DNA of 32,000 bases, taken from a virus. Both the position numbers and the translations under genes were made by a program. The notes under the pieces were generated by a model, which worked only from the letters and a program-made list of their open reading frames with translations, was not told the DNA's origin and did not search any database. Shown here one piece after another: positions 1-27,538 of the stretch; the stretch's first letter is position 1, and the number at the start of each line of letters is the position of its first letter. The stretch is taken from positions 1 through 32,000 of IMG/VR virus record IMGVR_UViG_3300045988_175865. The stretch is one strand, 5' to 3'.

Positions 1-3000
1 TTAGCACCTCTCCGTTAACTATTAATAACATAGATCAAGTAGATAATAAACTAGGATTAAAATTAAATACAGAAACTGATTCTACTCCTGATTTTTACAT
101 CGGAAATAATGGACAGTATTCAAATATGTTAAGACAATTTCGAGCTAAATTAATCGAAAGTTCTATATTTAATAGATATTCTGGAGAGTTTATTAATGCT
201 AATGAAAAGAAACAAGAATTTGATATCACTTTTTTAAATGATTCTATTTTAAATTATAAAAAAACATTAGCTTCTAATATTTCAAAATATTTAGGTAATT
301 CTGAATCTATAACATTAAATTTAGAGAATCTTACAGATTTTGATAATAAAGTTTCAGAAATATTAACTAATTTTGAAACTGTGTTTAATTCAGAATTAAT
401 TGATCGTAACAGTGCTTTTAATAACGCATATGACGCATATGTAATTTTAACTCAGTTTGATAAGTTATTGCAGAGTGAGATTCCATTTATTACTATTAAT
501 CCAAAATATACAAAGACGAATTCGTCTTATGTAGATCGTTATATATATAGAGGTCCTAATGTAATACACTATACTGGCTTTAGTACTAATGAAGATACAA
601 ACGCGGAAGACCATGCTAGTGATTTATCAAAAATATTGTTAGACTACTTTCCTGAAGTAAATGCAGTTGGTTTAGAAATAGATAATACTAGTATTACTTT
701 AACAGGATTTAATTCTGTAATGACAAAACTTATTAAGACTATTCAAGAAAATGAAAATTTAATAGAATATCGTTCAGAATTAAACAAAGGAGTTAAAGCA
801 GATATGTCTGTGTTAATAGACGCATATATAAATAATATACTTTCAAACCGAATTATATCTAAAAATTATAGAACATATTTATTAGATAAATTACGAGGTA
901 TTAAGAAATTTATATATTCGCCTCAAATGTCTTCTGAAATAAAAGCTATGTTTACTCAAATGGCTTTTAAAACAGTGCCATCGCAATATACAGCATATGG
1001 CTTTGATCCACAAAAAAAGACAATTGCTAGCAGAGATTTAAAAGAACGACCAGTATCGCAGCAAGCATACGATATTAGAAGTTTAATTCAGGCATCAGGT
1101 TTTTATTGAAGATCTAATCCTGATTTATTTAAAGAAAAATTAAATCAGTACGGAATTACTATAGGTAATGATAGAATTGTTATTGAATCTATTATAGATA
1201 ATATACCTATTACATTTACTATTACTTATGAATTAAATCAAAATGGCAAAATGATATATAGATCGTTTGGAGAAATTAATGATCAATCTTTGAACAATCT
1301 GATATATAACTTTATGTCTTTTATAATTCCAGAAAATATAGCTGAAATTATTCCTCAGGTATATCCTGTTGAAAAATATACAAAAACAGAACTATTTGTT
1401 CCATTATTAGCTACGACGTTATTAGATGGAAACAATAGTGATATTTTAACTAAAGAACACGATCTTGTTAATTTAGTTCCATTTACAGAAGATATATGAA
1501 AAGTAGCTAATGTATTAAGTGTAACAAATGGTTCGGATACTATTAATATTATTAAAAATGCAGAGGGAAATAACTTGCCATTATATCAAATTATTAGTTT
1601 GGTATATAATCATAACGAAATATTTGATAGACTAATTAATCCACCTACAGAAACAATTGAACATCCAAATAATGTAGCTGCACATAATTTAATAGTACAA
1701 AATATTGAAAGCGGTTTTTTATTATCTCCTAGAATTCGATCGGATATAAACATTAATGGAAAAATTAAAAAACCTGCTAATTTAAAAGTTAGTGAAGTTG
1801 CAAGATTATCTATCATGCACGATTTTTATCAAAATCTAGTAGATAATTTAGAGGGATTAATTTATTTACAACCGACTACTTTTTCTGATAAAAATAAACA
1901 TTTTCTAATAACATATAATATAGGTAAAACCATCAATACTTCTCTAGGAGAAGTAAACATTAAAGAAATTTTAAATAACTATTTAAAAGGAGATGGAACT
2001 TTAGATCCTTTATATCATCTTTTAGGAGAAACTAGAAAAAACCAAATAAATGCATTAGTTCAGAATATATTGTTTGACTATAGTCTTGCTTTTGATACAG
2101 AATTTACATCATTAGAACAGATTGATGAATTCATTGCGAAATATAATCACAGTTTAAAAAGTATTCAATCTGCATTTAATGCTAAGGGAGTTGATTTCTT
2201 TTTAGATATACATGCATATAAAACTGCCTTAAGTAAATACCCTCGAACTAACGAAACTATTAAAAACTTTTTTAAAGTCTATAATGATCAAAATAAAACG
2301 TTAGAACGTTTAGATAGAGAAAAAAGAAAATTCCTAAAGGACTTACTTGTAAATAACTTTAATTTAAATATTAATCAGGATAGTTTTATTTCTCAAACAT
2401 TTAATAAACCTGAATTTAAATCATTAGTTAATAAAAGAAATGGAGAAATTACATTAGCTGAAGTAACTGATGAAAAAGGTAAAAGAATTAATCTCAATAA
2501 AATAGTTGATTTTGATGCTTTACTTAATCTAAAATGAAAAGTTAAACTAAATCCCATTTTAGAATCATATTTTATTACTGATACTCTATTATCAAATGAG
2601 TATAATAATATGATGATAGGAGGTGTTTATGCACATCCGAATAAAAACAAAGACGGAAAGTTAGATAGCAAAGAATATTTTGAATTTAGTGAAGCTAATC
2701 GACTAATTGCTCAATATAAACGTATGGTAATATTTGGAGCTACTTATCATCCATTTGCTCAAAATTTAGAAAATGGAGTTGCTTCAAATATTAAAATTGC
2801 TGTAATTAACGATGAAGCGGGAACAGCCTGAAATATGTTAGGAGATGAAAATACTGGATTAGATACTATGGATGGATCTGGTTTATCAAGTCCACTTGAA
2901 TCTAGAGCAGAAAATAATTCACTCTTAGATGCAAGAGTTGGGCGCGATAAAAAAACTATTATGCATGATATCGATTCTCGGTATGGTAGACCAACTTTAT

Positions 3001-5537
3001 TAAAATGGGCTGTTTTTGATATAAGTAATGAAAGAAGACGCATTTCTTATGGTTCAGATATTTCATTAGAAAATATCTTTAAAAAAATGCATAGTATTCC
3101 AATTAACAAATCTATTATTTTAGAAAATTATTATAATATATTTGATCCTATATATTTTAAAGATATTCGAACCAATAAATATTATAAAATAAATTCAATC
3201 AAAACGATTTTAGATCCGAATGGATTAATTGAAGTTGCTAGAGATCTAACTGAAGTTGAATCTAATGGATTAGAAACAAACAATACTATTCAGACAACTC
3301 ATATAATAAATACATTATACGATATTGATCAAGTATTTGGTGGATCTTGAGCAATGAAATTTAATGAAGACATAAATCGTTTAGAATATTCTGAATCTAA
3401 TATTGATATACTTGAAAATATCGTTAACAAAGAGCAATTAAAAGATAAGTTTATTGCTTATTTAGTTAATAAATCTGCAATCAAAGTTGGAGCAGGAAAT
3501 ATAAATGATTCAAGTAAATGAAGTAACTCTGATGCATTTACTACTATTGAAATGTCTACTAAGTTTGGAGGAGTTCAAATGAACGCTGATCACCATTTAG
3601 ACATGTCAGAGGTTACCGAAATGACGCAAATGATTAGTGCTTTAGAGCAAAATGGATTTACACATGAGTTAGTAACTCAGATTTATAAAGAAATTGGTCA
3701 GATTGTTAAAGAATCCATGAATGATTTGTCAGAAACAATTAAAGCTAAAGATAAAGATCAACTGTATACTATATTAGGTAGATCATTAATTAAAGCTTTT
3801 ATGAATGATGACAAAGATACTTTAGGGTTAGCACAATCATTTGTTTATTTAGCTAATGAAAGTTTTAAAAATGCAAATTTAGATTATAAACTACCATTTA
3901 GCGCAGCAACAATTAATGGAGCTTTTATTGCTACTACAACATCTAACTTAGTTAAAAGTGGAATTAGACGTAAATATTCTGGTATAGCATCTGTACTAGT
4001 TCCTTCTCATAATATGATTCAATACTATAATATTGATGGACTTAATTATCAGTATGAAGAATTATATAATTTAGTAAATACAAAAGGTATTGATCATTTA
4101 TACGATGAAAACGGAAATATTATAAAAAGTAAAGTTGAACGTGCTTTAACAGAACCTATTATTGATGGAGAAATAAATCCTTTTATAATTCCAATTGAGC
4201 CAAATGATATTGATTTCGAAGATACAATTGTAATATTTAATGAAGAAGATAATCCTACTGTTATTAAAATTGATTCCTTAGAGAAATACTATTTATATAA
4301 GCACCAAGCAACCTTAGGACAACAATATTATAACTGAACAATTAAACCTAAAAATCTAAAACAGTCAAATACATTTTTTGATGTAGTTGTAGGCTTAGAT
4401 GGATTTGGAAATGAAATAAATAAACGTTTTAGTATATATGACTTAGATGCAGTAAGAGCATCTTATTATTTAAGTTCTCGTAGAAAACAATTAAAGAACT
4501 GGGAGGATTTAACAGAGTATGAAAAAACATTACTATCATCTGCATTAGGTTTACATCCAATCGATAATATACAGTTAAACATAGATAGTCTATTATCTGA
4601 TTTACAACAAAAGATACAATTACAACTAAATAGTTTAGCTGACAATCAATCTATTATTAATAATACTGCTTTTGGTATTACTAATCCAAATGTTAGAGTT
4701 GTTAAAGTATCTAATGTTAATGTTACTCCAACTCAAATTGTAATGGGGAAAAGGCAAGCTCAACAATTTGGATTGCAAAAAGGAGACTCTATTGCTCAGA
4801 TTAGACAAGAAAAAGAAAATTTCTTTTATAATCGAATGCAAAGTAACTATAATATTGGAAATCCAGATAAATTAACATATGATATTATATTATTTGATGG
4901 AACAGGAAAACAATTCTATGTAAAAGTTTTAAGAACAGAAGAAGTTCCAAAAGCATTTACAGGTAGTATTACTCCAAATCCTGATTTTAAAATTATTGAT
5001 AATATTGTATACTATAATGAAAAAGAATTTTCAACAAATGATGAGAAACAATTTTATAAGTATACAGATACAAATGGAAATATTCATGATTTAATTATTA
5101 TAAATTCTATAGATAGATTAGGTGAATTAAGAAAATCAGGATTAATTAATACATATCAATTTAATTATACTAGCGAAAATACTAAAAAATTATTACCTTA
5201 TCAATTTCGTTATAATATAGAAAATAATATTCCTATCACTTTACATACCAGAGATAGTGAAGGAAACTTGCATGAAGCTAAAATCAATCCAACAGCAGAT
5301 ATTAGTTACGTAAGTTTAAACCAAAATGAAATATATAACTTTAATCAAAGAATAAAACAATTAGCGTTTAATCAATATGAAGCATTTGAAAAGTCTTTAC
5401 TTCATGTAGGTACTCGCATACCGTCACAATCAATGCAGTCATTTGCTCCTATGGAGATTGTAATGTTTACAGATAGTGAAGTAAATGATGTTTATGTAGC
5501 TAAAGTAGTTACGTGAATGGAAGGCTCCGATTACGAT
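1..5537 (+). CDS. Giant virion-type protein, exon 1 (5' end outside window). Ends in a beta-prime-like DPBB catalytic domain of a single-chain crAss/YonO/QDE-1-type RNA polymerase.
   Basis: One frame (codon starts divisible by 3) is open from nt 3 to 5537 if the in-frame TGAs at 1107, 1497, 2535, 2829, 3348, 3519, 4335 and 5514 are sense; there is no in-frame TAA/TAG. Seven ORF-track pieces (126, 1251, 1575, 2610, 2835, 3552, 4743) share this frame. RIPSQSMQSFAPMEIV...VVTWMEGSDYD (5415-5537) resembles RNAP beta-prime RAPTLH..QAFEPVLI...NADFDGD. Confidence 0.75.
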
Positions 5538-6465
5538 AAACTTATCATGTCGTATTAAAACTCTTTTAATTGCTGGAAACTCTGACCGCGTTATGGCGAA
5601 GACAATCAGCAGCCAAGCCATATAAAAATGGAAGGTTCAACGACTAATATTAATAACTTAATAATTCGACTTTAATAGTATGAAACAGTTAAAAACACAT
5701 TTAAATAAAATAGGAAGAAATTTAATAATTGCTATGTCTATAGGGGATGGGCATATAGCTAAAAAAGGATATTTAGATATAAATCATTGTGAAGCTCAGA
5801 AAGAGTATTGTTTATGAAAATGGCAACTTTTAAAAGATAATGGAGTTAAAGTTGGCACGTTTAGAGAATGAAAACAAATAAATGGATATTCTAAAGGTAA
5901 AGAAGTAACTAAATATGGATTTCAAACAACAGTACTTGATTTTTGTAAAGTACTTAGACGAGTTGAATATGAGTACGGAAAAACTAAATATAATAAAAAG
6001 TTACTTAAGCGACTTGGAGCTCAAGGGTTAGCAATATGAATAATGGATGATGGAGCATTACTTCGTAGATCTAAAACAAATAAAGATGGAATACGAACAT
6101 ATTCAGGATTTTATATTACAATATCTACGTATTGTCCATTAGAGCAAGCTAATGATATTATAGAATATTTTAATGAAGAATGAGATATTTATCCGACTAA
6201 GGTTTTTGATAAAAGGCAGCAATCCTATATAATTAATTTTTGTGCCAGAGAAGGTAGAAAATTAATAGAAATTATAAAACCTTATATGTGTCCCCACATG
6301 ATGTATAAGGTTCTTCCTGATAAAATAGAATGTGAAAACTACATGAAGTTATTAAAAGAAACAGCTGAAACTGCTGTTGAAGGTACACTAGAAATAGTGG
6401 AAATGGAGAGCGCGAAAGCGAAGATATAGTCTGATCTATATAGAAATATATAGTTAACACAATTG
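5538..6465 (+). mobile_element. Group I self-splicing intron 1 (928 nt) with an internal LAGLIDADG endonuclease ORF
   Basis: P1: exon UACGAU (5532-5537) pairs with intron GUCGUA (5549-5554), with U.G at the splice site. Core elements are AAUCAGCAGCC (about 5605-5615), GGUUCAACGACUA (5634-5646) and AAGAUAUAGUCUGA (6421-6434). A GAAA-capped hairpin CUAUAUA/UAUAUAG follows, and the intron ends AACACAAUUG with a terminal G at 6465. The host reading frame shifts across the insert, and splicing restores it. Confidence 0.85.
5680..6429 (+). CDS. LAGLIDADG homing endonuclease (double-motif), encoded in intron 1
   Basis: ATG at 5680, TAG at 6427. Motifs are LIIAMSIGDGHI and GLAI-W-IMDDGAL. There are four in-frame TGAs (5815, 5869, 6037, 6180), one at the conserved Trp of the second motif. 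The 3' end overlaps the intron P7 core. Confidence 0.88.
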
Positions 6466-7077
6466 ATAGATAAACAATATATCCTTGGCTATTCATTATC
6501 ATCTAATGGTCGTATTCATACTGATGAAAACTCAGCACCTTATTTACGAGCTGATGCATTAAGAAATAGAGTTGTAGATGGTGTATTTAGTATTATTCTT
6601 AATCCTAGAAACCAAATTAACTTAACAATGCCAGTAACTACTGATCGAATGCAAAGTCTTGCTAAAAGATCTAAAATGGGTGAAGCTGCTAAATATATGA
6701 GTCCTTACAATCCAGCAAGTAAGTACTTAATGCAGATTCAAAATATGGTTGGTAAAGCAGTTATTGGTAATGTTGCTACGGCATTAAAAAGTTTCTTTGC
6801 CTTAAGCAACGTATATAATACCAAGTTTAGAGAGATTAATGAAGCAATTCAAACTGGTAATTTTGATATAGCTAGAACGATGTTAAAAAGATATACATTT
6901 ATCCATAATGATAGACTAATAACATTAGCTAATGTTAATATGGAAGTATTTGAGAGTCTACCTGAAAATACTCCTGAAGATATTAGACAAACTCTAGCTC
7001 AAGTAATTAGTTATGAGGATGCCTTAGATGATCAATCTATGGTACTTGGAGAACTTTTAAATAGTGCTACTGATTTT
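6466..7077 (+). CDS. Giant RNAP-like protein, exon 2
   Basis: Starts IDKQY..., completing GSDYD|ID. This is the ORF-track 6463 frame, open to about 7077; beyond that the translation becomes a hydrophobic run (FFIRKLLNNLPILIFIIIFAL*) typical of intron read-through. The 3' boundary is uncertain by a few nt. Confidence 0.65.
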
Positions 7078-8372
7078 TTCATCAGAAAATTATTGAATAA
7101 CTTGCCTATATTAATTTTTATTATTATCTTTGCACTATAGATAAAAATAATTTAAAACAAATTAATATGGCAAAGAAATTAACAAATGAAGAAGTTGAAA
7201 AACTTCATAAAATGTATTTAGAAGGAATGACTTGTGAAGAAATTGGAAAACTTACAGGTCATAAAACAGAAACAGTATCTAAATATCTAAAAGAGAATTA
7301 TGATATAAAGCCTCAAAGAAAAATTGATTTAGTAATTTTATCAAAACTAGCAAAAGAGGGAAAAACAACTAAAGAAATGGCAGAATATTTTAATGTACAT
7401 CCTTCTGCTATATGCTATTGAAAAAAGTATTTTAATGAAGGAGATCTAAAGATTTCGCACCCTTTTTTGCAAGAAGATCATCAATTATCTCATCTACAAG
7501 AACAAATGATTCTTGGCAGTTTATTAGGAGATATGAACATAGGAAAACCTAGAAAACATCATCCTACTTGTAGATTATCCTTAGTACACTCAATTAAACA
7601 AAAAGAATTATTTATGAAGAAAGTAGAAATTCTTGGAGAATTTATGAGTAATTATAGAGAATATAGTTATTTAGATAATAGAACAAATAAAATATATTCT
7701 ACTATAAGAGGAAATAGTAAATCTCATAAAGTATTTAATGATATGTATAATAAACTATATATTAATGATATTAAAACAATTACTAAAGAATATTTAGATA
7801 TGATTAATCATCCAATAGCATTAGCTTACTGATTTATGGATGATGGAACGAATTCTGGACAAATAGCTACAAATTGTTTTTCTTTTGAAGAGGTTAAATT
7901 ACTATCGAATTGACTAGAAAACAAATTTGGTATTATTACAACAATGCACAAAAATTTAAGAAATTATACTTTATATATAGTTGCTAGCTCTAGATTTGAA
8001 TTTGATAATTTAATTTCTCCTTATATTATTCCTTCTATGAAATACAAATTAAAATTTTCTGAAATAGCAGAGTCAGTTAACTCCGTGAAAACGGGAAAGC
8101 CCTTAGAGATTTAAATACTAAACTATTATAGTAATATGATAGTGGCTAAGCTAATCACTTAGATATAGTAATAAGTTTAAATATTGGGTAATCCGTTACT
8201 AAGCTTCCTAATAGGAAGAAAGTTCAACGACTATCGAAATGCAGAAATGACAGAGTAGAGTAGAACTTAAGTAAGTTCGAAGTGCGGAGATCCTGTATAG
8301 GATAAGATATAGTCTGAACTCATAGGAAACTATGAGAGAACTTATGGAAACGATAAGTTCGTAACAAAATTG
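7078..8372 (+). mobile_element. Group I self-splicing intron 2 (about 1.3 kb) with a 5'-located HTH-LAGLIDADG ORF
   Basis: The structured 3' core (8115-8372) contains GGGUAAUCCGUUAC (about 8186-8199), AGUUCAACGACUA (8221-8233) and AAGAUAUAGUCUGAAC (8304-8319), then a GAAA-capped hairpin CUCAUAG/CUAUGAG. The end AACAAAAUUG (G at 8372) is nearly identical to the ends of introns 1 and 3. The 5' splice site is provisional (7074-7078): the U-run 7074-7079 can pair with GAAAAU at 7085-7090. Confidence 0.75.
7167..8114 (+). CDS. Homing endonuclease: two N-terminal HTH modules plus a LAGLIDADG domain, encoded in intron 2
   Basis: ORF-track 7167 and 7467 pieces are in the same frame and are joined by TGA at 7419. 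Further TGAs lie at 7830 (ALAY-W-FMDDGTN) and 7911. TAA at 8112. Motifs are LGSLLGDMNIG and WFMDDG. Confidence 0.85.
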
Positions 8373-10637
8373 AATGCAAAGGAATTAATCCTTAAAAAAA
8401 TTAATGCAGATACAAACTGGGTAGATATTTATACTATTTCTCTTATGTTAGGTGAATCACTAGATGAAATTGGTAATTTAATGATTGATGATGATATAAC
8501 AGAACTAGTAAATGATTTTACTACTAGTATGTTTAGTGATGAACAGAACTATGATAAAGTTCGTTATGTTGCTGATAAAGCATATACCTCTGAAGGAGAG
8601 AAAAAAGAGAAATATCTACAATTGCTGGATAAAGTTATATCTGCGGATGAAGTACGTATCTTAGGAAAGATACTTAAAATTAATCAAGGTCTTCCTACAA
8701 ACACTTCTGATTTATATAGTTATATTAAATCTATTGAAAAATATATAGAAAGTAGGTTTAATAGACAAATACTAGAAAAACAAGAAGAATATTTAAGAAT
8801 TGAAAAGGAGTTAGAAAAAACTTGATTAACTCCTGAAAAGAAGGAAATATTAAAAGAGGAACGAAGATTACAAAAAATATATCCAGAATTAGAAGAAGGG
8901 TCTTCATTATATAATTTCTATAATAAATACAATTTAATATATGAAGATATAAATGGTAATATTAGACATGGAGATTTAGAAGCCAAACTTGGTAAACCTA
9001 AAGAAGCTATAAAGGCTAGACAAGATTACTTTAAGTCTAGAAAAGAAATGGCTAATATCTGGCAATCTTTTGACTTAGTTAGATTTATTACCGATCCAAT
9101 CTACAAACAGGAAAGTATTGAAAAATATGAACAAAATAAGGTTAATTTTAATATTTTGGAAGTAATCAGTGCAGTTCCTCATTTTAGAGAAATGTTTAAT
9201 GTTCTTGCAATTAACAAAAGTGTTCTTAATAGTTTATCATCTAGAAATAGGTTAGAAGATATAATTCTAAACCAACTTAGTAGGAACTTTGCTGGAGTTC
9301 GTATGGATGTAAGCAAACCACTAAATAAACTTGAAATTAGAACTATAAAAGATCAGATAGATAAGTATCTTATTAGATCTTGGATTATTAGTAAAGGAAT
9401 TGAAATAAATGTTCCCGCTAGTCCTAAGAATCCAGCTCCTTATATATTAAGATTGGATAATGAAAATAATATTAACAAGTTTAGAAGTTATGTTGAAAAC
9501 TACGCTATTCCTTTATTAAAGGATAAGTTGAAAAATAATAAGTTTGTTCAGCTATTAACTTTTGGACTAAGACAAGGAGTTCCATTCTATAAGCTACCAC
9601 TTAACATGGTTCAAGTTGATAACACTCAGAAGACTAGGGCTTTATACGAAGAAGCATTATATGCTTTTAATAACCTTAATAAGGTCAAAATAACTGGTAT
9701 AGATATGAACTTAGTGGATATGTTTTATCTATATAACTTAGTTGTTAATCAAGATAAATTTGGTCCTAATTCTATGACTAGGATATTTGAAGACTTAGTA
9801 TCATCTGGTAATGAAGATCTTCTTATATATGATTTTAATAATTGAATTGATAGTCAAAATATTGAAGACTTAGTTAACAGATTTAGAACAGAAGAAAATA
9901 GTATTAGGTTTAATTTAGTAGAATCAACTCCTATTGTAGATGACACAAATTCTGATATTGGATTTAAAGAAACTCCTTTAGAAGAGGATATTGAAGAGGC
10001 TCAATATGAAGAATTAGCAGATAATCCTGTTAAAGAAAATAATGAAGTAGCTGAATATTATCAAACTAACCCTTCAACTAAATCAAAACTTATAACAATA
10101 ATTAAAGAATCTAATTTAAAAGGACTTCACATAGTTACAGATTCTGATTTAGTTAATGAAGATTCTACTACTAGAAATGCTAGGGGATTTGTGAAGAATG
10201 GTGAAATCTATATTAATGTAGATAGAGCCGAAGATGATACAGTAGTCCATGAATTTAGCCATTTATATTTAGCAGATGCTAAAGTAAATAGTCCTAATGA
10301 ATACTATTCAGTACTAAGTAGAGTTAGAAATACAGGTACTTGGAAATATATGAGAGAGATACCTGAATATCAAAATAAAAGAGGATCTGATTTTGATGAA
10401 GAGGTTCTAGCAACTTTAATTGAGCGAGCATATAATGAGGGATTAGGAGGAGCAGATTATGATGTTGCAATAGATGCTCTGAATCTTACATCTCCAGAAT
10501 TTAAATCATTTATAAAATCTGATATTCTACCATCATTAGGAGAGACATTAATAGAGAATTATAAGGTATCTCAAAAGATAGCTACACTTAAAAATAAGCT
10601 CATCAAAGATAATATTATTAAAGAGGATTGTAAATAA
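8373..10637 (+). CDS. Giant RNAP-like protein, exon 3, with a C-terminal zincin-like HExxH module
   Basis: ORF-track pieces 8370, 9048 and 10191 share one frame and are joined by TGAs at 8823 and 9843. HEFSH lies at 10248-10262 in the context GFVKNGEIYINVDRAEDDTVVHEFSHLYL. TAA at 10635-10637. Confidence 0.7.
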
Positions 10638-17715: not shown

Positions 17716-18798
17716 TTAAATAAGTTTTGCAGCTAATTTTGGGTTAAGTAATAGTTTATTACATTTACCAGGATAGTGTTTGTTTAGTGTTCTTACTAGG
17801 CTAAAGAGTAGATCTTCAGTTAACAATAACTTATCATTATCAACTATCCTAAGAATACGATCTATAATTAGGTCCATTTTACACCCAGGTTTACTAAGAT
17901 ATAATAAGCTATAATTTATAAATCTAGTGGTAATTACAGAAGCTATATCGGCACGATACTTACCTTTATCATATAATTGATTCTCAAGTATCCTTTTAAT
18001 ATCGTTCCAATCCGTATTAACTAGTTCTTCTGGGGAAGGAAGTTTATCTAATTTATTAGCTATGAATGTAGTAAATAATCCCCCAACAATATCATCACTA
18101 TCAAGAAAACATCCAGAAGCTATTTGCAGAATAAAGGATAAATTCTCAGGTTTAGACCAATCATCAATACTAGAAATAGTATTAATAAACATAGTATAAT
18201 TGCGAGCATTAATTTTAGACTGCCTAGATTTTGAACGGTCCATTAATTCATCACTATAAAGAAGCATAAAGTTAATCGCCTGATTATTATACCCTTTTTC
18301 CTCGGCATATTTAGCCCAATCATATTTATCAAACTTAATATTAAAGTTTAACATACGGGTTTTTATAGCCTCATCAATTTCTGTTACATTAAAATCTCCC
18401 CCTTCAGGATTAGCTGTTAAAATAACAGTACTATTAGGAGGTAATTTCCAAGAGAAATATTCTTGTCTTGATATAAGCTCCATAATAGCAGCCAATACAA
18501 TTGGAGAGCTACGATTCACATCGTCAAGATTCAAAATTGTAGGTTTACTTAGATCAATACTTTTTATCCATTCTGGAATTGCATAGCTCATTCTAGTTTC
18601 CTCAGATATTTCCCAACCTGCTTTACTATAACTTTCTATAAGTTCTGCAGTTATCCATCTACATTCATCATTTTTACATACATAGTGCTCTTTAATTGGC
18701 CACCCGCAAATTTCTCCTGGGTCTGAAATTTGACTAAGGTTTTTCTTGATGTAATTAGCACCAATTTCACTAGCTATTTGTTCGATTAAACTCGTTTT
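17716..18798 (-). CDS. MoxR/AAA_5-type AAA+ ATPase, exon 2
   Basis: Begins KTSLIEQIA (the second half of Walker A). Walker B-like ILNLDDVNR, sensor-1-like VILTANP, and DEAIKTRM. No TGA; all eight Trp codons are TGG. Confidence 0.8.
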   Translation of the reverse strand, partial: KTSLIEQIASEIGANYIKKNLSQISDPGEICGWPIKEHYVCKNDECRWITAELIESYSKAGWEISEETRMSYAIPEWIKSIDLSKPTILNLDDVNRSSPIVLAAIMELISRQEYFSWKLPPNSTVILTANPEGGDFNVTEIDEAIKTRMLNFNIKFDKYDWAKYAEEKGYNNQAINFMLLYSDELMDRSKSRQSKINARNYTMFINTISSIDDWSKPENLSFILQIASGCFLDSDDIVGGLFTTFIANKLDKLPSPEELVNTDWNDIKRILENQLYDKGKYRADIASVITTRFINYSLLYLSKPGCKMDLIIDRILRIVDNDKLLLTEDLLFSLVRTLNKHYPGKCNKLLLNPKLAAKLI

Positions 18799-20215
18799 CA
18801 ATTTTGTTATCTCTAGAGCTTTTTATCTCTAGATTCTATATCTTCATATTCGATATAGTTCAGCATATCTTTTCACCTCTAAAAATAGTAAGGTGGAGCA
18901 CACTCGTGGGAAAATTATATTCTGTACAACAGGTTCATTTCCTATGCGTTGCACTGTAGCAAATCATTTAAATCTGCTATTAGCTCAGGATTAGCATCTC
19001 AGCCTTCCCTGAATTTGCGCTCTAATAATTTTAAAGATTTCTCTTTAAAACGGCAATCTTTGATTTTATTAAATATTTGATATTTTCTATCTAAATAAAT
19101 TGTTGATTTATAATATAGGTGATATAAGTAGGCAGTTGCCTTTATTCCCGAAAAACTAAATGCAAAAGTAAAATCGCTATGATTATTAGAAAACAAATGT
19201 CTAGGCTCTAAGTAGCTTACCATTTTACTTAAAAATTCTTTTGCACCTAAACAGCTTATTTCTGGTTTATCATATAATCCTAATGACCCATCACCATCAA
19301 AATATCCTCTAATAAAATGTCTTATTAAATCTTTAGACTTAAAGATATTTTCATTAGGAAATTTTAAAGTCAGTGACTTTTTAGGAGTACATCCGTAAGA
19401 ATTTAATGTTTCTCATAAGTGTTTATTTGTTAGAGCAAATCTACATCTAAAATATTGCTTATTGTTACATATAATAGATGATATTTTTACTCTATTACCT
19501 GTTACTTGAAAAAACTTCTGTAATTTATATAAATGTTCCACATCAGATCCTTTTAAAGAAACTTCAAAATTATAATGAGGTTTTCCATTTTTAGGAATTG
19601 AAGCAATATATCCATCAGCAAAAATAAAACCCAATCAATAAGCTTTTTCTTCGGTATCTATAATATCAAAAATGTGTTCATTAAATTTTAGCATATTTTG
19701 AGTATTAATAACTGGTATTCCAAGTTTCTTTAATCTAATAGAAAAATTGCTTCGACTAAATTTATATTTATTACTTATTTGTGTTAGGCTATAACCATTA
19801 CTATACATCTGCACTGCCTCTTCAAAGTAAGTATCTAAATTACTCTTTCGTATATTAATGTTATTATTATGAAGAATAGTGGAAATAGTATTTCTGGATA
19901 CATTATATAGTTTAGCTATATCACTACAAGTTTTACCCAAATTATATAGTTTACAAATATTAATTTTTTCAGATAATATTAATTTACTACACTCTCTACA
20001 AAGAGAATTTCTATTAGCTACACGACTAACTGTAGTAGGATGTACTTTACAAATTTTACTTATATCTTTAATCTTATAACCTTGATTATATAAATCAATA
20101 ATCTTATTTTCTAAATCATTACTAATTTTTTGCATAATATTTAAATTTTAAATAAATTAAATCTATGCAAAAGTAATAATATAAAACAATTTAATCAAAT
20201 ATTTTATAATAAATT
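18799..20215 (-). mobile_element. Group I self-splicing intron 3 (about 1.4 kb) with an HTH-LAGLIDADG ORF, splitting the ATPase Walker A motif
   Basis: On the minus strand: AAUCCUGAGC (18983-18992), CAACGCAUAG (18942-18951), AAGAUAUAGAAUC (18832-18844), hairpin UCUAGAG/CUCUAGA (18812-18833), and the end AACAAAAUUG with terminal G at 18799. Exon 1 ends ...PGIG (GGU). Exact splice sites are good to a few nt; the P1 pairing is weak. Confidence 0.75.
18942..20135 (-). CDS. Homing endonuclease: three N-terminal HTH repeats plus a double LAGLIDADG domain, encoded in intron 3
   Basis: ORF-track pieces 19635..20135, 19413..19634 and 18999..19223 are in one frame and are joined by TGAs at 19635, 19413 and 18999. 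Motifs are AY-W-LGFIFADGYI and FIRGYFDGDGSL. TAG at 18942. Confidence 0.85.
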
Positions 20216-24560: not shown

Positions 24561-24746
24561 TTATATTTTAATAATTTTATCACAACTTTTCAAGTGAACT
24601 TTTCCACTAAGATCATATTTTAATTTGATTCTTTCTGCAGTAAATCCTATAACTTCTGCTTTTACAAACCAAGATGAAGTTCGTGATCGCTCAATACAAA
24701 TAACTTGATCTCCAATTGCTAATATGTTACCTAACCAATCTTTCAT
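24561..24746 (-). CDS. Hypothetical small protein
   Basis: 61-aa ORF joined to the upstream ORF by a TAATG junction. Confidence 0.45.
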   Translation of the reverse strand: MKDWLGNILAIGDQVICIERSRTSSWFVKAEVIGFTAERIKLKYDLSGKVHLKSCDKIIKI

Positions 24747-25204
24747 TATGTATTCATTTTATAAAACATTTGTATCTTTTCTTTCAAATCATATAGTATT
24801 GCTTTTTCCTGAACAGTATTTACAAATAGTTCGTACATATTATACTTTTCATCATTATATATTAACAACATATCATTAATACTTACATCAATATAATTAC
24901 CTCCTATATAATATCGTAATTTAAAATTAATATATGAATTATTACATTCATACTTAATATCTGTATAACATTCTGAAGCAATATTTAATAAATTATTAAT
25001 AAAGTTCTTTGTATAAGATACAACCATTCTATTTGTAATTGGAATCCTACTCTTTGTTCGGTCTTCAATATTTCTAATAACATCATTTACAACACTATCC
25101 CTTGCTATTATTGTAGCTTGATCTGATTCAATTTTACAAGTTCGAGATTGAAGATTAGAAACAAACAGTTGAATTTCTTTTAAAGTTAAATTTTCATCAT
25201 TCAT
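24746..25204 (-). CDS. Hypothetical protein
   Basis: 152-aa ORF joined to the DNA polymerase stop by a TAATG junction. Confidence 0.5.
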   Translation of the reverse strand: MNDENLTLKEIQLFVSNLQSRTCKIESDQATIIARDSVVNDVIRNIEDRTKSRIPITNRMVVSYTKNFINNLLNIASECYTDIKYECNNSYINFKLRYYIGGNYIDVSINDMLLIYNDEKYNMYELFVNTVQEKAILYDLKEKIQMFYKMNT

Positions 25205-26129
25205 TAAAATAATTTTAATTGTTTATGCTTAAACATACATACGATTTTTTGTGCTGCAGCTATATAAAAAGAATAATTAATATTAGATGGTAATTCATCA
25301 GATTTATTAATAGTATTCAAAATTGTTACGCCAGAGTCAGTTAATAGTTTAATATAGTTATATCGTCTACCATTAGAATCTATTTTACATTTATATAGCC
25401 ATGGACCATCAGTAGATATATAATATCGGTTAATACGTTGAATTAACTGACCATCATATTCTACAGAATAATCTTTACTAACTTTTTGATAAGTTATAAA
25501 CTTATTAATATCCTTACAAGCATAAATAGTATCTGCAACAGGAATTCCATCTGCTAAACATTTATTAATAGCTTCGGGAATAATAACTGCATCCATACCT
25601 TTGCCAAGTTTTACCTTGTCGATAAACATACCTTTTGTCTTTAAAAGACTTGGATCTTTTGTTTCAGAATAACCTTCCTTAATTGCAAGATAGTCATTAA
25701 TAGCAAACTGATACATTGCTTCAAATCTATCCTCTTCAAGAGTAAGTTTAGTTAAGATTTCCCAATTCTTGCAAATTTCTTGTACATTGGTATATTTGTT
25801 TCGTTTTAATAGTACAAATAATCCATCAGTATTAGCTTGAATTATTCTACAACCTGCTTGAACTAATTTCTCCGCTAACATTAATAACATCAATTGTCCA
25901 TTAATTCTAATTTGCATAACAGCATATGGAGAATAACAAAAATTATGTTCATTTTGTAGATTACCAGACAAACCGTTTAAAGCAAGTTTTAGAGTTTCAT
26001 TCTTAACTTTATTTCCATTATGTTTAGCTTCTAATCGTTCATCTCGAATTTGAGAGTAAACTTCAAGGAATTCTTTACCAAGATGTTTTGGATAAAATCC
26101 ATATTGTATAATAATGCTAGGATATAGTG
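25204..26129 (-). CDS. Family B DNA polymerase, exon 2 (palm/thumb)
   Basis: Starts (S)LYPSIIIQYGFYP. It contains the motif B-like KLALNGLSGNL and the motif C-like IQANTDGLFV. TAA at 25204. Confidence 0.85.
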
Positions 26130-26514
26130 CATATCCATTTTAATTTTCGACTATATCTTAATTTTTATATCTAATTTGTTCTGAATTTAATTCAATGTAG
26201 TGTCATTTAAAGCCTTTATATGAAGCTTTTGTACCTTGACAACAACAATAAATGGATATAACCAAATTAAATTTATAAAAATTCGCGGCGTTTCGAATAA
26301 AACCTTATAAAGTTTTATCCTACTCTCTTTCGAGATAGTCTGTGAACCTTGATCCTATAAGGATCCTTGGCTGCGGATTATAATACTTATTAAGTTTTTA
26401 CTTTCTCATAAGCGTTATCTTATGTGCTACACTATGTATTACTACTAGCTGCAGTATTAATAAGTTAAATTAAGTTCCCGCAATTAACCGCGTTTTACTT
26501 GCGCCACTATATTA
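26130..26514 (-). mobile_element. ORF-less group I self-splicing intron 4 (385 nt) in DNA polymerase motif A
   Basis: On the minus strand: P1 is exon UUGCGU with intron GCGCAA (U.G at the splice site). P10 is intron AUAGUG with 3' exon CACUAU. Core elements are AAUCCGCAGCC (26369-26379), GGUUCACAGACUA (about 26335-26349) and AAGAUAUAGUCG (about 26148-26160), with terminal G at 26130. Removal gives exactly 650 codons. Confidence 0.9.
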
Positions 26515-27538
26515 ACGCAACATCTATATCAATAAGCATTTCATCTTTTGTAGGTATAATTTCCTCAGGTTTATTAACACTATGAATACCTCCAACTCCA
26601 ACAGTATATTCTAATTCATCAAATATAAAATGTTTCTCATATCCTTTACGTCCAGGAGAAACTGTTTGCTTTTTCATATCAGCTAATACACTTTTAAGTA
26701 TAGGTGATTCAAACTCAATAAAAGGTAAAATAACCTCATTTAATGGAATTAAATCGCAAGGTGACCTCAAATCTTTAATTTGATTTCAGGTTTGTCCTGT
26801 TTTTTCAAGATACTTTTGAGTAATAATTTTCATTCCAATATTAACTCCATCTTTATTAAGTACCTTTACTCCATACTCATCTTCAATAGCTATACGTAAA
26901 TCAATATCCTTTTTACATCTATTTAATAATTCCTCAGTAGAATCAACATCATTAATATTATATTCTATCATTTTAGGAATTTCAGATACAGGAAGATAAT
27001 CTTGGAAATCGCCTTCATATTCTTGAACATTTCGAAACTGCATAGTTACTTGCATCTCCTTTAACCCTACTCTCAACTTTTGAGAATAAAGCATAGTTAA
27101 CAAGTCTAATGTTTCAAAATAAATTTTATATTTCCACTTTGTTCAAGAACTAAAATTAGTATCAGTAGATTGAATTATTAAATTACTAAGTTTAAATAAA
27201 GATGCGCATATCTCTGAATACGACATCTTTAACATTACTTTATGAAAATCAATAATATAATTAATAATAGGATTATCATAATGAATATTATTGTATCCAC
27301 AAAATATTTTATCTGTTTTAAACTGTAAGTTTGTAGTATAGTTTCTTTCTCAAATACCAATTTGAGATTGATTTCTAACAGTTCAAAATAAATCTACTAA
27401 CTCTTGTAAATTATTCTTACGTTCAGATATTTCAAAAAATAAGCGTTCTCCTGTTTCTGTATTTTTTACAACACAGTGAAACACATTAGGAAATATTTCA
27501 ATATCATAAACGTATACAGTTTTATTTCTAATTAACAT
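26515..27538 (-). CDS. Family B DNA polymerase, exon 1 (3'-5' exonuclease domain and start of palm)
   Basis: ATG at 27538. Exo I is YVYDIEIF and Exo II-like is GYNNIHYDNPII. At least four in-frame TGAs. It ends ...IDIDVA + t, and splicing restores DIDVASLYPS. Confidence 0.85.

Follow-up and report, generated by a model that had tools for sequence, protein, structure and literature searches.

A group I intron in motif A of a crAss-like phage DNA polymerase gene, derived by deletion from a mobile GIY-YIG intron

Introduction

Phage introns that hold no open reading frame, or only a truncated endonuclease gene, are classical objects, with T4 nrdB and Twort as examples. In regard to T4, Eddy and Gold are said to have described the nrdB intron in 1991 as "a deletion mutant of a version found in the wild". 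The intron presented here resembles it in being a phage intron of the IA type in which the endonuclease ORF is truncated by an internal deletion, with the full-length version present in a related phage, and splicing, retained in nrdB, is predicted at our locus. Unlike in T4, the host gene is polB and not a ribonucleotide reductase gene, and the endonuclease family and the phage group are also different. In our intron, about 88% of the ORF is missing, start codon included.

Group I introns were reportedly also found within DNA polymerase genes, in the Bacillus phages SPO1, SP82 and phi-e and in the T7-like PhiI, in work attributed to Goodrich-Blair in 1990 and to Bonocora and Shub in 2004. Our intron shares with these its position in a conserved catalytic region of the polymerase, the association with homing endonucleases and the patchy distribution among close relatives. 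However, those polymerases belong to family A and the endonucleases are of the HNH type, whereas the gene studied here carries family B motifs and the ancestral endonuclease is of the GIY-YIG type.

ORF-less group I introns of the Staphylococcus phage Twort were reportedly described by Landthaler and Shub in 1999, and Goddard and Burt are said to have proposed in the same year the homing cycle model of invasion, degeneration and loss. Like those of Twort, our intron is a small ORF-less phage intron of the IA type, and the coexistence of empty sites with endonuclease-positive and endonuclease-negative introns fits the homing cycle. In comparison with both, degeneration is caught here with the parent and the derivative still 99.7-100% identical in natural populations.

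For crAss-like phages, group I introns in PolB of the Delta and Zeta groups, detected through their endonuclease domains, were reported together with the recoding of TGA or TAG (Yutin et al. 2021, PMC7886860), and the PolB introns of Zeta phages were mentioned again in a 2025 paper. As far as the available text of the former goes, our locus agrees with it in the phage group, the PolB gene, the combination of introns with TGA recoding and the high intron density, but detection by endonuclease domains, as set out there, would not find ORF-less copies such as ours. To this text the present analysis adds the exact site, the RNA structure, the deletion origin and the population states.

Results

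Location of the intron and the joined reading frame

The window, which is the whole 32-kb stretch of DNA analysed, carries polB on its minus strand, from an ATG at 27538 to 26515 and, after an insert of 385 nt, from 26129 to a stop codon at 25204 (Table 1). Exon 1 ends in ...GAU GUU GCG U, preceded by the codons GAT ATA GAT, exon 2 starts with CA CUA UAU CCU AGC, and the insertion point lies inside the Ser codon of polymerase motif A (DIDVA/SLYPS). The insert reads ...GGAUAUG at its 3' end. Ligation of the exons, giving ...GATGTTGCGT joined to CACTATATCC..., produces 650 codons including the stop and thus a polymerase of 649 amino acids. The sequence-only reading of this DNA had arrived at the same number of codons, which holds if four in-frame TGA are read as Trp. 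Over residues 1-341, exon 1 aligns collinearly with homologues that lack an interruption, and the register of motif A agrees with the homologue cr114_1, which runs gaplessly through the junction as ...EMLIDIDVASLYPS.... Because this uninterrupted protein aligns straight across the junction, the predicted splicing restores the homologous register exactly. The same reading had proposed a 385-nt group I intron with both its splice sites in motif A, and this stands on the full-length match to the Rfam group I model described below, the exact junction and the collinear homologues. The two pairings it had suggested at the exon edges, P1 between GCGCAA and UUGCGU with a U·G pair and P10 between AUAGUG and CACUAU, are likewise present in their expected places.

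Table 1. Predicted features of polB and its intron in the window (intron nucleotides counted from the 5' splice site)
Feature	Position	Strand	Remarks
polB exon 1	26515..27538	minus	1024 nt; ExoI-III-like motifs, motif A aspartate (DIDVA), four in-frame TGA (Trp); phrog_1252 match
P1, 5'-exon strand UUGCGU	26515..26520	minus	final U in the U·G wobble pair of the 5' splice site
Group I intron	26130..26514	minus	385 nt, IA-like; RF00028 match, folding z-score, covariation
P10, intron strand AUAGUG (nt 5-10)	26505..26510	minus	pairs with exon 2 CACUAU at 26129..26124, 6 bp
Internal guide sequence GCGCAA (nt 11-16)	26499..26504	minus	3' strand of P1
Core, P3 5' strand (nt 23-27) to P3 3' strand (nt 227-231)	26284..26492	minus	alignment and pair counts
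P4 (nt 33-38/138-143), extended P5 (nt 41-137), P6/P6a (nt 144-169)	within 26284..26492	minus	
J6/7 and P7 5' strand (nt 169-179), P7.1 (nt 180-191), P7.2 (nt 195-220)	within 26284..26492	minus	P7.1 with GAAA loop
P8 (nt 232-241 with nt 346-355) and loop L8	26160..26283	minus	L8 is the site of the endonuclease ORF in the full-length intron
Deletion junction (between nt 268 and nt 269)	26246..26247	minus	659 nt (full-length nt 269-927) absent
GIY-YIG ORF remnant (...CCQGTKASYKGFKWHYIELNSEQIRYKN, then stop)	26158..26246	minus	last 28 codons and stop; stop TAA straddles the P8 end and J8/7
J8/7 and P7 3' strand, AAGAUAUAGUCG	26148..26159	minus	P7 forms a pseudoknot with P3
Terminal G (omega-G)	26130..26130	minus	3' splice site
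polB exon 2	25204..26129	minus	926 nt including stop; SLYPS part of motif A, motif B KLALNGLSGNL, motif C NTDG

The host polymerase and the source of the window

The spliced 649-aa protein matched phrog_1252, annotated as "DNA polymerase", with E=7e-147, and resembled E. coli Pol II weakly in the region of motifs B-C (E=0.03); a Pfam search of the same protein returned no match. It contains, in order, motif A (DxxSLYPS), motif B (KxxxNxxxG) and a DTD-like motif C (NTDG), along with 3'-5' exonuclease motifs. We describe the polymerase as family-B-like, on the basis of these motifs, the PHROG match, the weak PDB match and the literature. At the amino acid level, it is 63-68% identical to PolB of crAss-like phages of the Suoliviridae (63% in the case of cr114_1) and 78-80% identical to the intron-less PolBs of its closest relatives, found on IMG/VR contigs of 134-179 kb.

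All four in-frame TGA codons are located in exon 1 and none in exon 2. They occupy sites at which at least one homologue has Trp, one of them aligning with a W of cr114_1, and the intron-encoded endonuclease ORFs of the relatives likewise require TGA to be read as Trp. No tRNA genes, and hence no suppressor tRNA, were found in the 32-kb window. Among the relatives, OLVX01000015 is listed as zeta_12 with the code TGA/W (Yutin et al. 2021, PMC7886860). The source of the window is a Zeta-group crAss-like phage of the human gut that reads TGA as Trp.

Ribozyme fold and comparative support

A scan with the Rfam group I models, which the sequence-only reading had recommended, was performed on 851 nt (25900-26750) and gave a match to the full RF00028 model (1-253) at 26523..26135 of the minus strand, with E=6e-8 and a score of 37.8 bits, below the curated gathering cut-off of 50 bits. 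The low score results from the long P5, the P7.1/P7.2 and L8 insertions and the missing P2. Neither the gathering scan nor the E-value scan of the whole window returned RF00028; these scans were blind to the intron because of their speed filters and not because it is absent, as the narrow scan found it. The intron folds with a minimum free energy of -82 kcal/mol, for which z is -3.9 when compared with dinucleotide-shuffled sequences.

Related introns were collected from IMG/VR, GenBank and metagenome contigs, their P8 loops were trimmed by hand, and 10 distinct sequences were aligned. From this alignment, RNAalifold recovered P3, P4, the extended P5, P6/P6a, P7.1, P7.2 and P8, with 70 pairs, of which 26 were compensatory and none broken. 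After the P7 pseudoknot was added, all 76 core pairs were standard in each of the 10 sequences and 27 pairs were changed on both sides, whereas in slid controls, with the partners offset by 1-3 columns, pairing fell to 32-42% and at most 4 pairs were changed on both sides. The covariation comes mostly from two clades, the intron types A and B described below, and the independent events are therefore fewer than the cell counts; despite changes that mostly separate these two clades, the register of the predicted pairing is unambiguous. By element, three compensatory pairs were counted in P3, 14 in P5 and its extensions, one or two each in P6a, P7.1 and P7.2, and four in P8.

The core strings quoted in the sequence-only reading could all be located and assigned to elements, AAUCCGCAGCC to P4'/P6, GGAUCC/GGAUC to P6a, GGUUCACAGACUA to J6/7-P7 and AAGAUAUAGUCG to J8/7-P7'. 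The last two align with the RF00028 consensus in J6/7, in P7 with its guanosine-binding G-C pair and bulged A, and in J8/7. P7.1 has the form UCUC-GAAA-GAGA, and both P7.1 and P7.2 show compensatory changes in the sister intron. Judged by this predicted structure, the intron belongs to subgroup IA of the phage type, because P7.1 and P7.2 are present between P7 and P3'. There is no P2 and P9 is minimal, so that the activity of the predicted ribozyme could require a protein or high Mg2+ in vitro.

This evidence also bears on explanations that dispense with a group I intron. A polB naturally split into two polypeptides, expressed without RNA splicing, would be in accordance with the GenBank annotation of cr53_1 and cr118_1, where two polymerase CDSs surround an insertion, but it is very unlikely here. 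The break interrupts a motif A codon, exon 2 offers no start codon before a TTG at 25971, 158 nt past its beginning, which would cost the protein SLYPS, and a complete covarying group I core is found together with P1 and P10 that fit both exon edges. The chance that the insert is a group II intron, an intein or a site of translational bypass is close to nil: inteins do occur in crAss-like phages as well, but stops in all three frames of the insert exclude one, the group I model was the sole Rfam match with E<0.5 in the 851-nt search, and the structure is that of group I. All four candidates were rejected, on the frame stops, the Rfam match, the covarying core and the mid-codon split.

Origin by deletion of the endonuclease

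Five loci (L102, L103, L105, L108 and L110) carry at the identical site an intron of 1,044 nt, in which GATGTTGCGT is followed by the intron start TAATATAG and the intron end ...GGATATG by CACTATATCC. In L086 the same 5' junction and intron start are present, and the fetched stretch ends within the intron. Compared with the 1,044-nt intron of L108 (OGYB01000012.1), nt 1-268 of the window intron show one mismatch, and nt 269-385 are 100% identical to nt 928-1044. The lone mismatch, C to U at nt 204, lies in P7.2, where G·U takes the place of G-C.

The full-length intron encodes a protein of 239 aa (nt 297-1016) with in-frame TGA, which matches GIY-YIG in Pfam (E=1e-10) and "homing endonuclease" in PHROG. 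This ORF sits in the loop of P8, and its final codons form the 3' strand of P8. The 659 nt missing from the window intron contain the leader and then, from the start codon on, 210 codons of the ORF. An intact homing endonuclease ORF, the feature of a mobile intron, is thus absent in the window and present in its full-length relatives. No microhomology or repeats were found at the deletion breakpoints. The comparison shows the window intron to be a derivative of the 1,044-nt mobile intron by a 659-nt internal deletion, its GIY-YIG endonuclease having been lost and not primitively absent, and the loss is recent and came about by a single clean deletion. The sequence-only reading had left both alternatives standing: that the intron has lost its endonuclease is borne out by its composition of nt 1-268 and 928-1044 of a GIY-YIG intron from the same site, and that it never had one is ruled out by the 28-codon remnant and by the parent intron in relatives.

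The deletion allele in other assemblies

The neighbouring gene (24746-25204) encodes a protein whose exact sequence is widespread, being present in 865 index blocks. Of seven loci retrieved through this protein, six hold the identical deletion junction in a polB 99.96-100% identical to that of the window; in five the gene is complete and its 385-nt intron is identical, whereas L116, the remaining one, begins inside the intron. The contigs of these six assemblies are 70-168 kb long and come from different projects (ENA and Logan).

Could the 385-nt form be a collapsed or chimeric assembly of the 1,044-nt intron? The deletion junction gave no match in IMG/VR and GTDB genomes, and a 38-mer scan of JGI/ENA metagenome contigs returned solely full-length or 85%-identical variant forms. 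However, the identical junction and 385-nt sequence recur in six assemblies that differ in project and assembler, and the breakpoints lack any repeat that would cause a collapse, which leaves this explanation with practically no weight.

The 385-nt allele is therefore real and stably inherited in a common lineage, and the intron presumably splices. The argument for splicing is an indirect one, since polB is presumably essential and the allele is maintained unchanged in at least six independent gut-metagenome assemblies. A ribozyme killed by the deletion or by the missing P2 and P9, which would make the insert a non-splicing scar and polB a pseudogene or dependent on a helper, is improbable. 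It would be compatible with an Rfam score under the cut-off and with a genome riddled with mobile elements, and splicing is predicted from sequence. Against it, the deletion lies wholly within loop L8, the helices are intact and the single substitution keeps its pairing, the exons contain no frameshift and no stop other than TGA, and the occurrence of the identical allele in at least six independent samples with near-identical polB would be unlikely for a dead essential gene.

The seventh locus (L114) belongs to the same lineage, its exon 1 being 99.9% identical over 988 nt. Its sequence then changes, about 36 nt short of the insertion point, to that of a motif A allele free of the intron (GTA GCT TCT), and the locus holds instead a different intron at 2491-3297, with a 201-aa ORF, at PolB residue 415/416.

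Population states and sister introns

Comparison of homologues for the presence or absence of the intron, as had been suggested from the sequence, revealed empty sites in the closest relatives and in L114, next to the five loci with the 1,044-nt form. The best 80 relatives in IMG/VR were all uninterrupted over residues 1-649; 77 of them had a contiguous motif A by pattern, and GCG-TCA codons were found in none. The sequence of the intron-less site is GATGTAGCTTCTCTATATCC. Intron-bearing alleles all read GTT GCG T/CA, and intron-less alleles have GCA or GCT. The exon flanks of intron-bearing alleles match the guide sequence through co-conversion or selection, as the GCG-TCA codons occur next to the intron and in none of the intron-less relatives.

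Between polB alleles that diverge by 12-25% in their exons, the 1,044-nt introns are 99.8-100% identical, and such near-identity within diverged exons indicates recent lateral spread of the intron, as judged from these identities. Towards L102, L103, L105 and L110, no clear gradient of co-conversion was observed in the exon flanks, identity being flat at about 75-88%. Exon 2 of L108 is 98-100% identical to the window in 50-nt windows for about 400 nt past the intron and then drops abruptly to 80-88%, a pattern that reads as the boundary of a recombination or co-conversion tract adjoining the intron.

Related introns occur at or near the same position. An 85% variant, type A', was found at the same site in OLVX01000015 and L109. 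The sister intron of type B, present in MT839577 and at 13 IMG/VR loci, has a core 78% identical to that of type A and its own GIY-YIG endonuclease, 39% identical to that of type A. Its guide CGGCAUCG points to a site 5 nt upstream, or 3 nt on an alternative reading, and the protein is compatible with both. A relative of type C (L090 and L096) is located exactly at the site of the window intron, in PolBs merely 27-32% identical.

Other intron sites exist in these genes. In relatives, a second insertion separates VGVGG from IHS, about 70 nt upstream of the insertion point in motif A; this position corresponds to about 26587 in the window, where the gene is uninterrupted. It is 334 nt long and ORF-less in L105 (6276-6610), about 1,100 nt long in L107 (3771-4872) and also present in L109; some polB alleles of the clade therefore carry at least two introns. 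PolB residue 415/416, just after motif B, is another intron site, used in L001 (cr53_1), L004, L005 (cr118_1) and L114, with an annotated HNH endonuclease in cr53_1 and other ORFs elsewhere. The same P4-P6-P7 core was also seen in two IMG/VR loci outside PolB homologues, at about 4300-4760 in L091, where the copy is apparently ORF-less with a normal P9, and at about 1200-2250 in L098, with an ORF of about 800 nt; tblastn of the window polymerase against these two gave no match.

Other group I introns of the window

The window holds at least three further group I introns. On the minus strand, 18836-19072 contains a group I core matching the full RF00028 model (39.5 bits, E=1e-8). Upstream of it, and running into it, is a LAGLIDADG-like ORF (20135..18942, 397 aa in code 4, with YWLGFIFADGYI and FIRGYFDGDGSLG), and an exon ORF follows downstream (18822..17716). 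On the plus strand, an intron at 8017-8336 scored 52.7 bits (E=3.5e-12), above the RF00028 cut-off of 50; the default gathering scan of the whole window did not recover it despite this score. It is placed between the large plus-strand ORFs 6454-7140 and 8313-10637, with a LAGLIDADG-like ORF upstream (7164-8114, LGSLLGDMNIG and YWFMDDGT). Two partial RF00028 matches on the plus strand, at 5568-5648 (33.3 bits) and 6420-6451 (26.4 bits), bracket another LAGLIDADG-like ORF (5665-6429, IIAMSIGDGHI and IWIMDDGA). The implied intron of about 900 nt splits a giant plus-strand frame (3-5558 and 6454-7140), probably a large crAss-type polymerase or virion gene block. Introns of this region went undetected when Rfam was run on 5000-9000 as a whole and came up when shorter stretches were scanned. 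At 7125-7169 of the plus strand, just upstream of the ORF at 7164, the S15-Flavobacteria ribosomal leader of Rfam gave a weak match below the cut-off (29.1 bits, E=0.2-0.6), which probably reflects chance AT-rich similarity.

Discussion

We conclude, with a probability of roughly 90%, that the minus strand from 26514 to 26130 represents an IA-type group I intron in polB of a Zeta-group crAss-like phage, derived by deletion from a 1,044-nt mobile intron with a GIY-YIG endonuclease, and that its splicing would restore a 649-aa polymerase. According to this model, the transcript would fold into the P3-P8 core, and the guide GCGCAA would pair with the exon sequence UUGCGU, forming P1. An external guanosine would then attack behind the wobble U, AUAGUG would position exon 2 through P10, and ligation of the exons after the terminal G would yield the polymerase, for which the reading of TGA as Trp is also needed. 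By the deletion, the ORF has lost its ribosome-binding region and start codon along with 210 codons, every ribozyme helix being left intact, and the intron would therefore still be able to splice but unable to home by itself. In its 385-nt form, it would now be passed vertically in an abundant phage lineage, while occupying, and thereby disrupting, the target site of the endonuclease.

A more speculative extension, to which we give clearly less credence than to its opposite, is that motif A of PolB in Zeta and Delta crAss-like phages might be a contested site of at least three related lineages of introns with GIY-YIG endonucleases, types A and C lying at GCGU/CA and type B, with a re-targeted guide, 3-5 nt upstream. 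Being occupied, the site would be protected from being cut and taken over by endonucleases that co-infecting relatives encode, and the endonuclease-less type A might then be kept as a cheap, immunising "vaccine" intron and not as a decaying parasite.

The intron proposed from the sequence is correct and well supported, yet it represents an ordinary and well-documented stage in the life cycle of selfish elements. What the present analysis adds is the exact structure, the proof of the deletion origin, and the coexisting population states. There are also practical consequences. Default pipelines fragment this essential polymerase, for which the intron and the reading of TGA as Trp are both to blame. 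ORF-less introns escape detection based on endonucleases, and the default Rfam scan missed both the polB intron and the above-threshold one at 8017-8336.

To our knowledge, no intron of a crAss-like phage has been experimentally tested so far. With L8 trimmed to leave about 280 nt, the intron is a compact candidate ribozyme for splicing assays in this phage group. For the biology of these gut phages, four states coexist at near-identical sequence, namely the 1,044-nt endonuclease-positive parent, the 385-nt endonuclease-negative derivative, the empty sites and the shifted sister intron, and together they represent a clean natural snapshot of the homing cycle.
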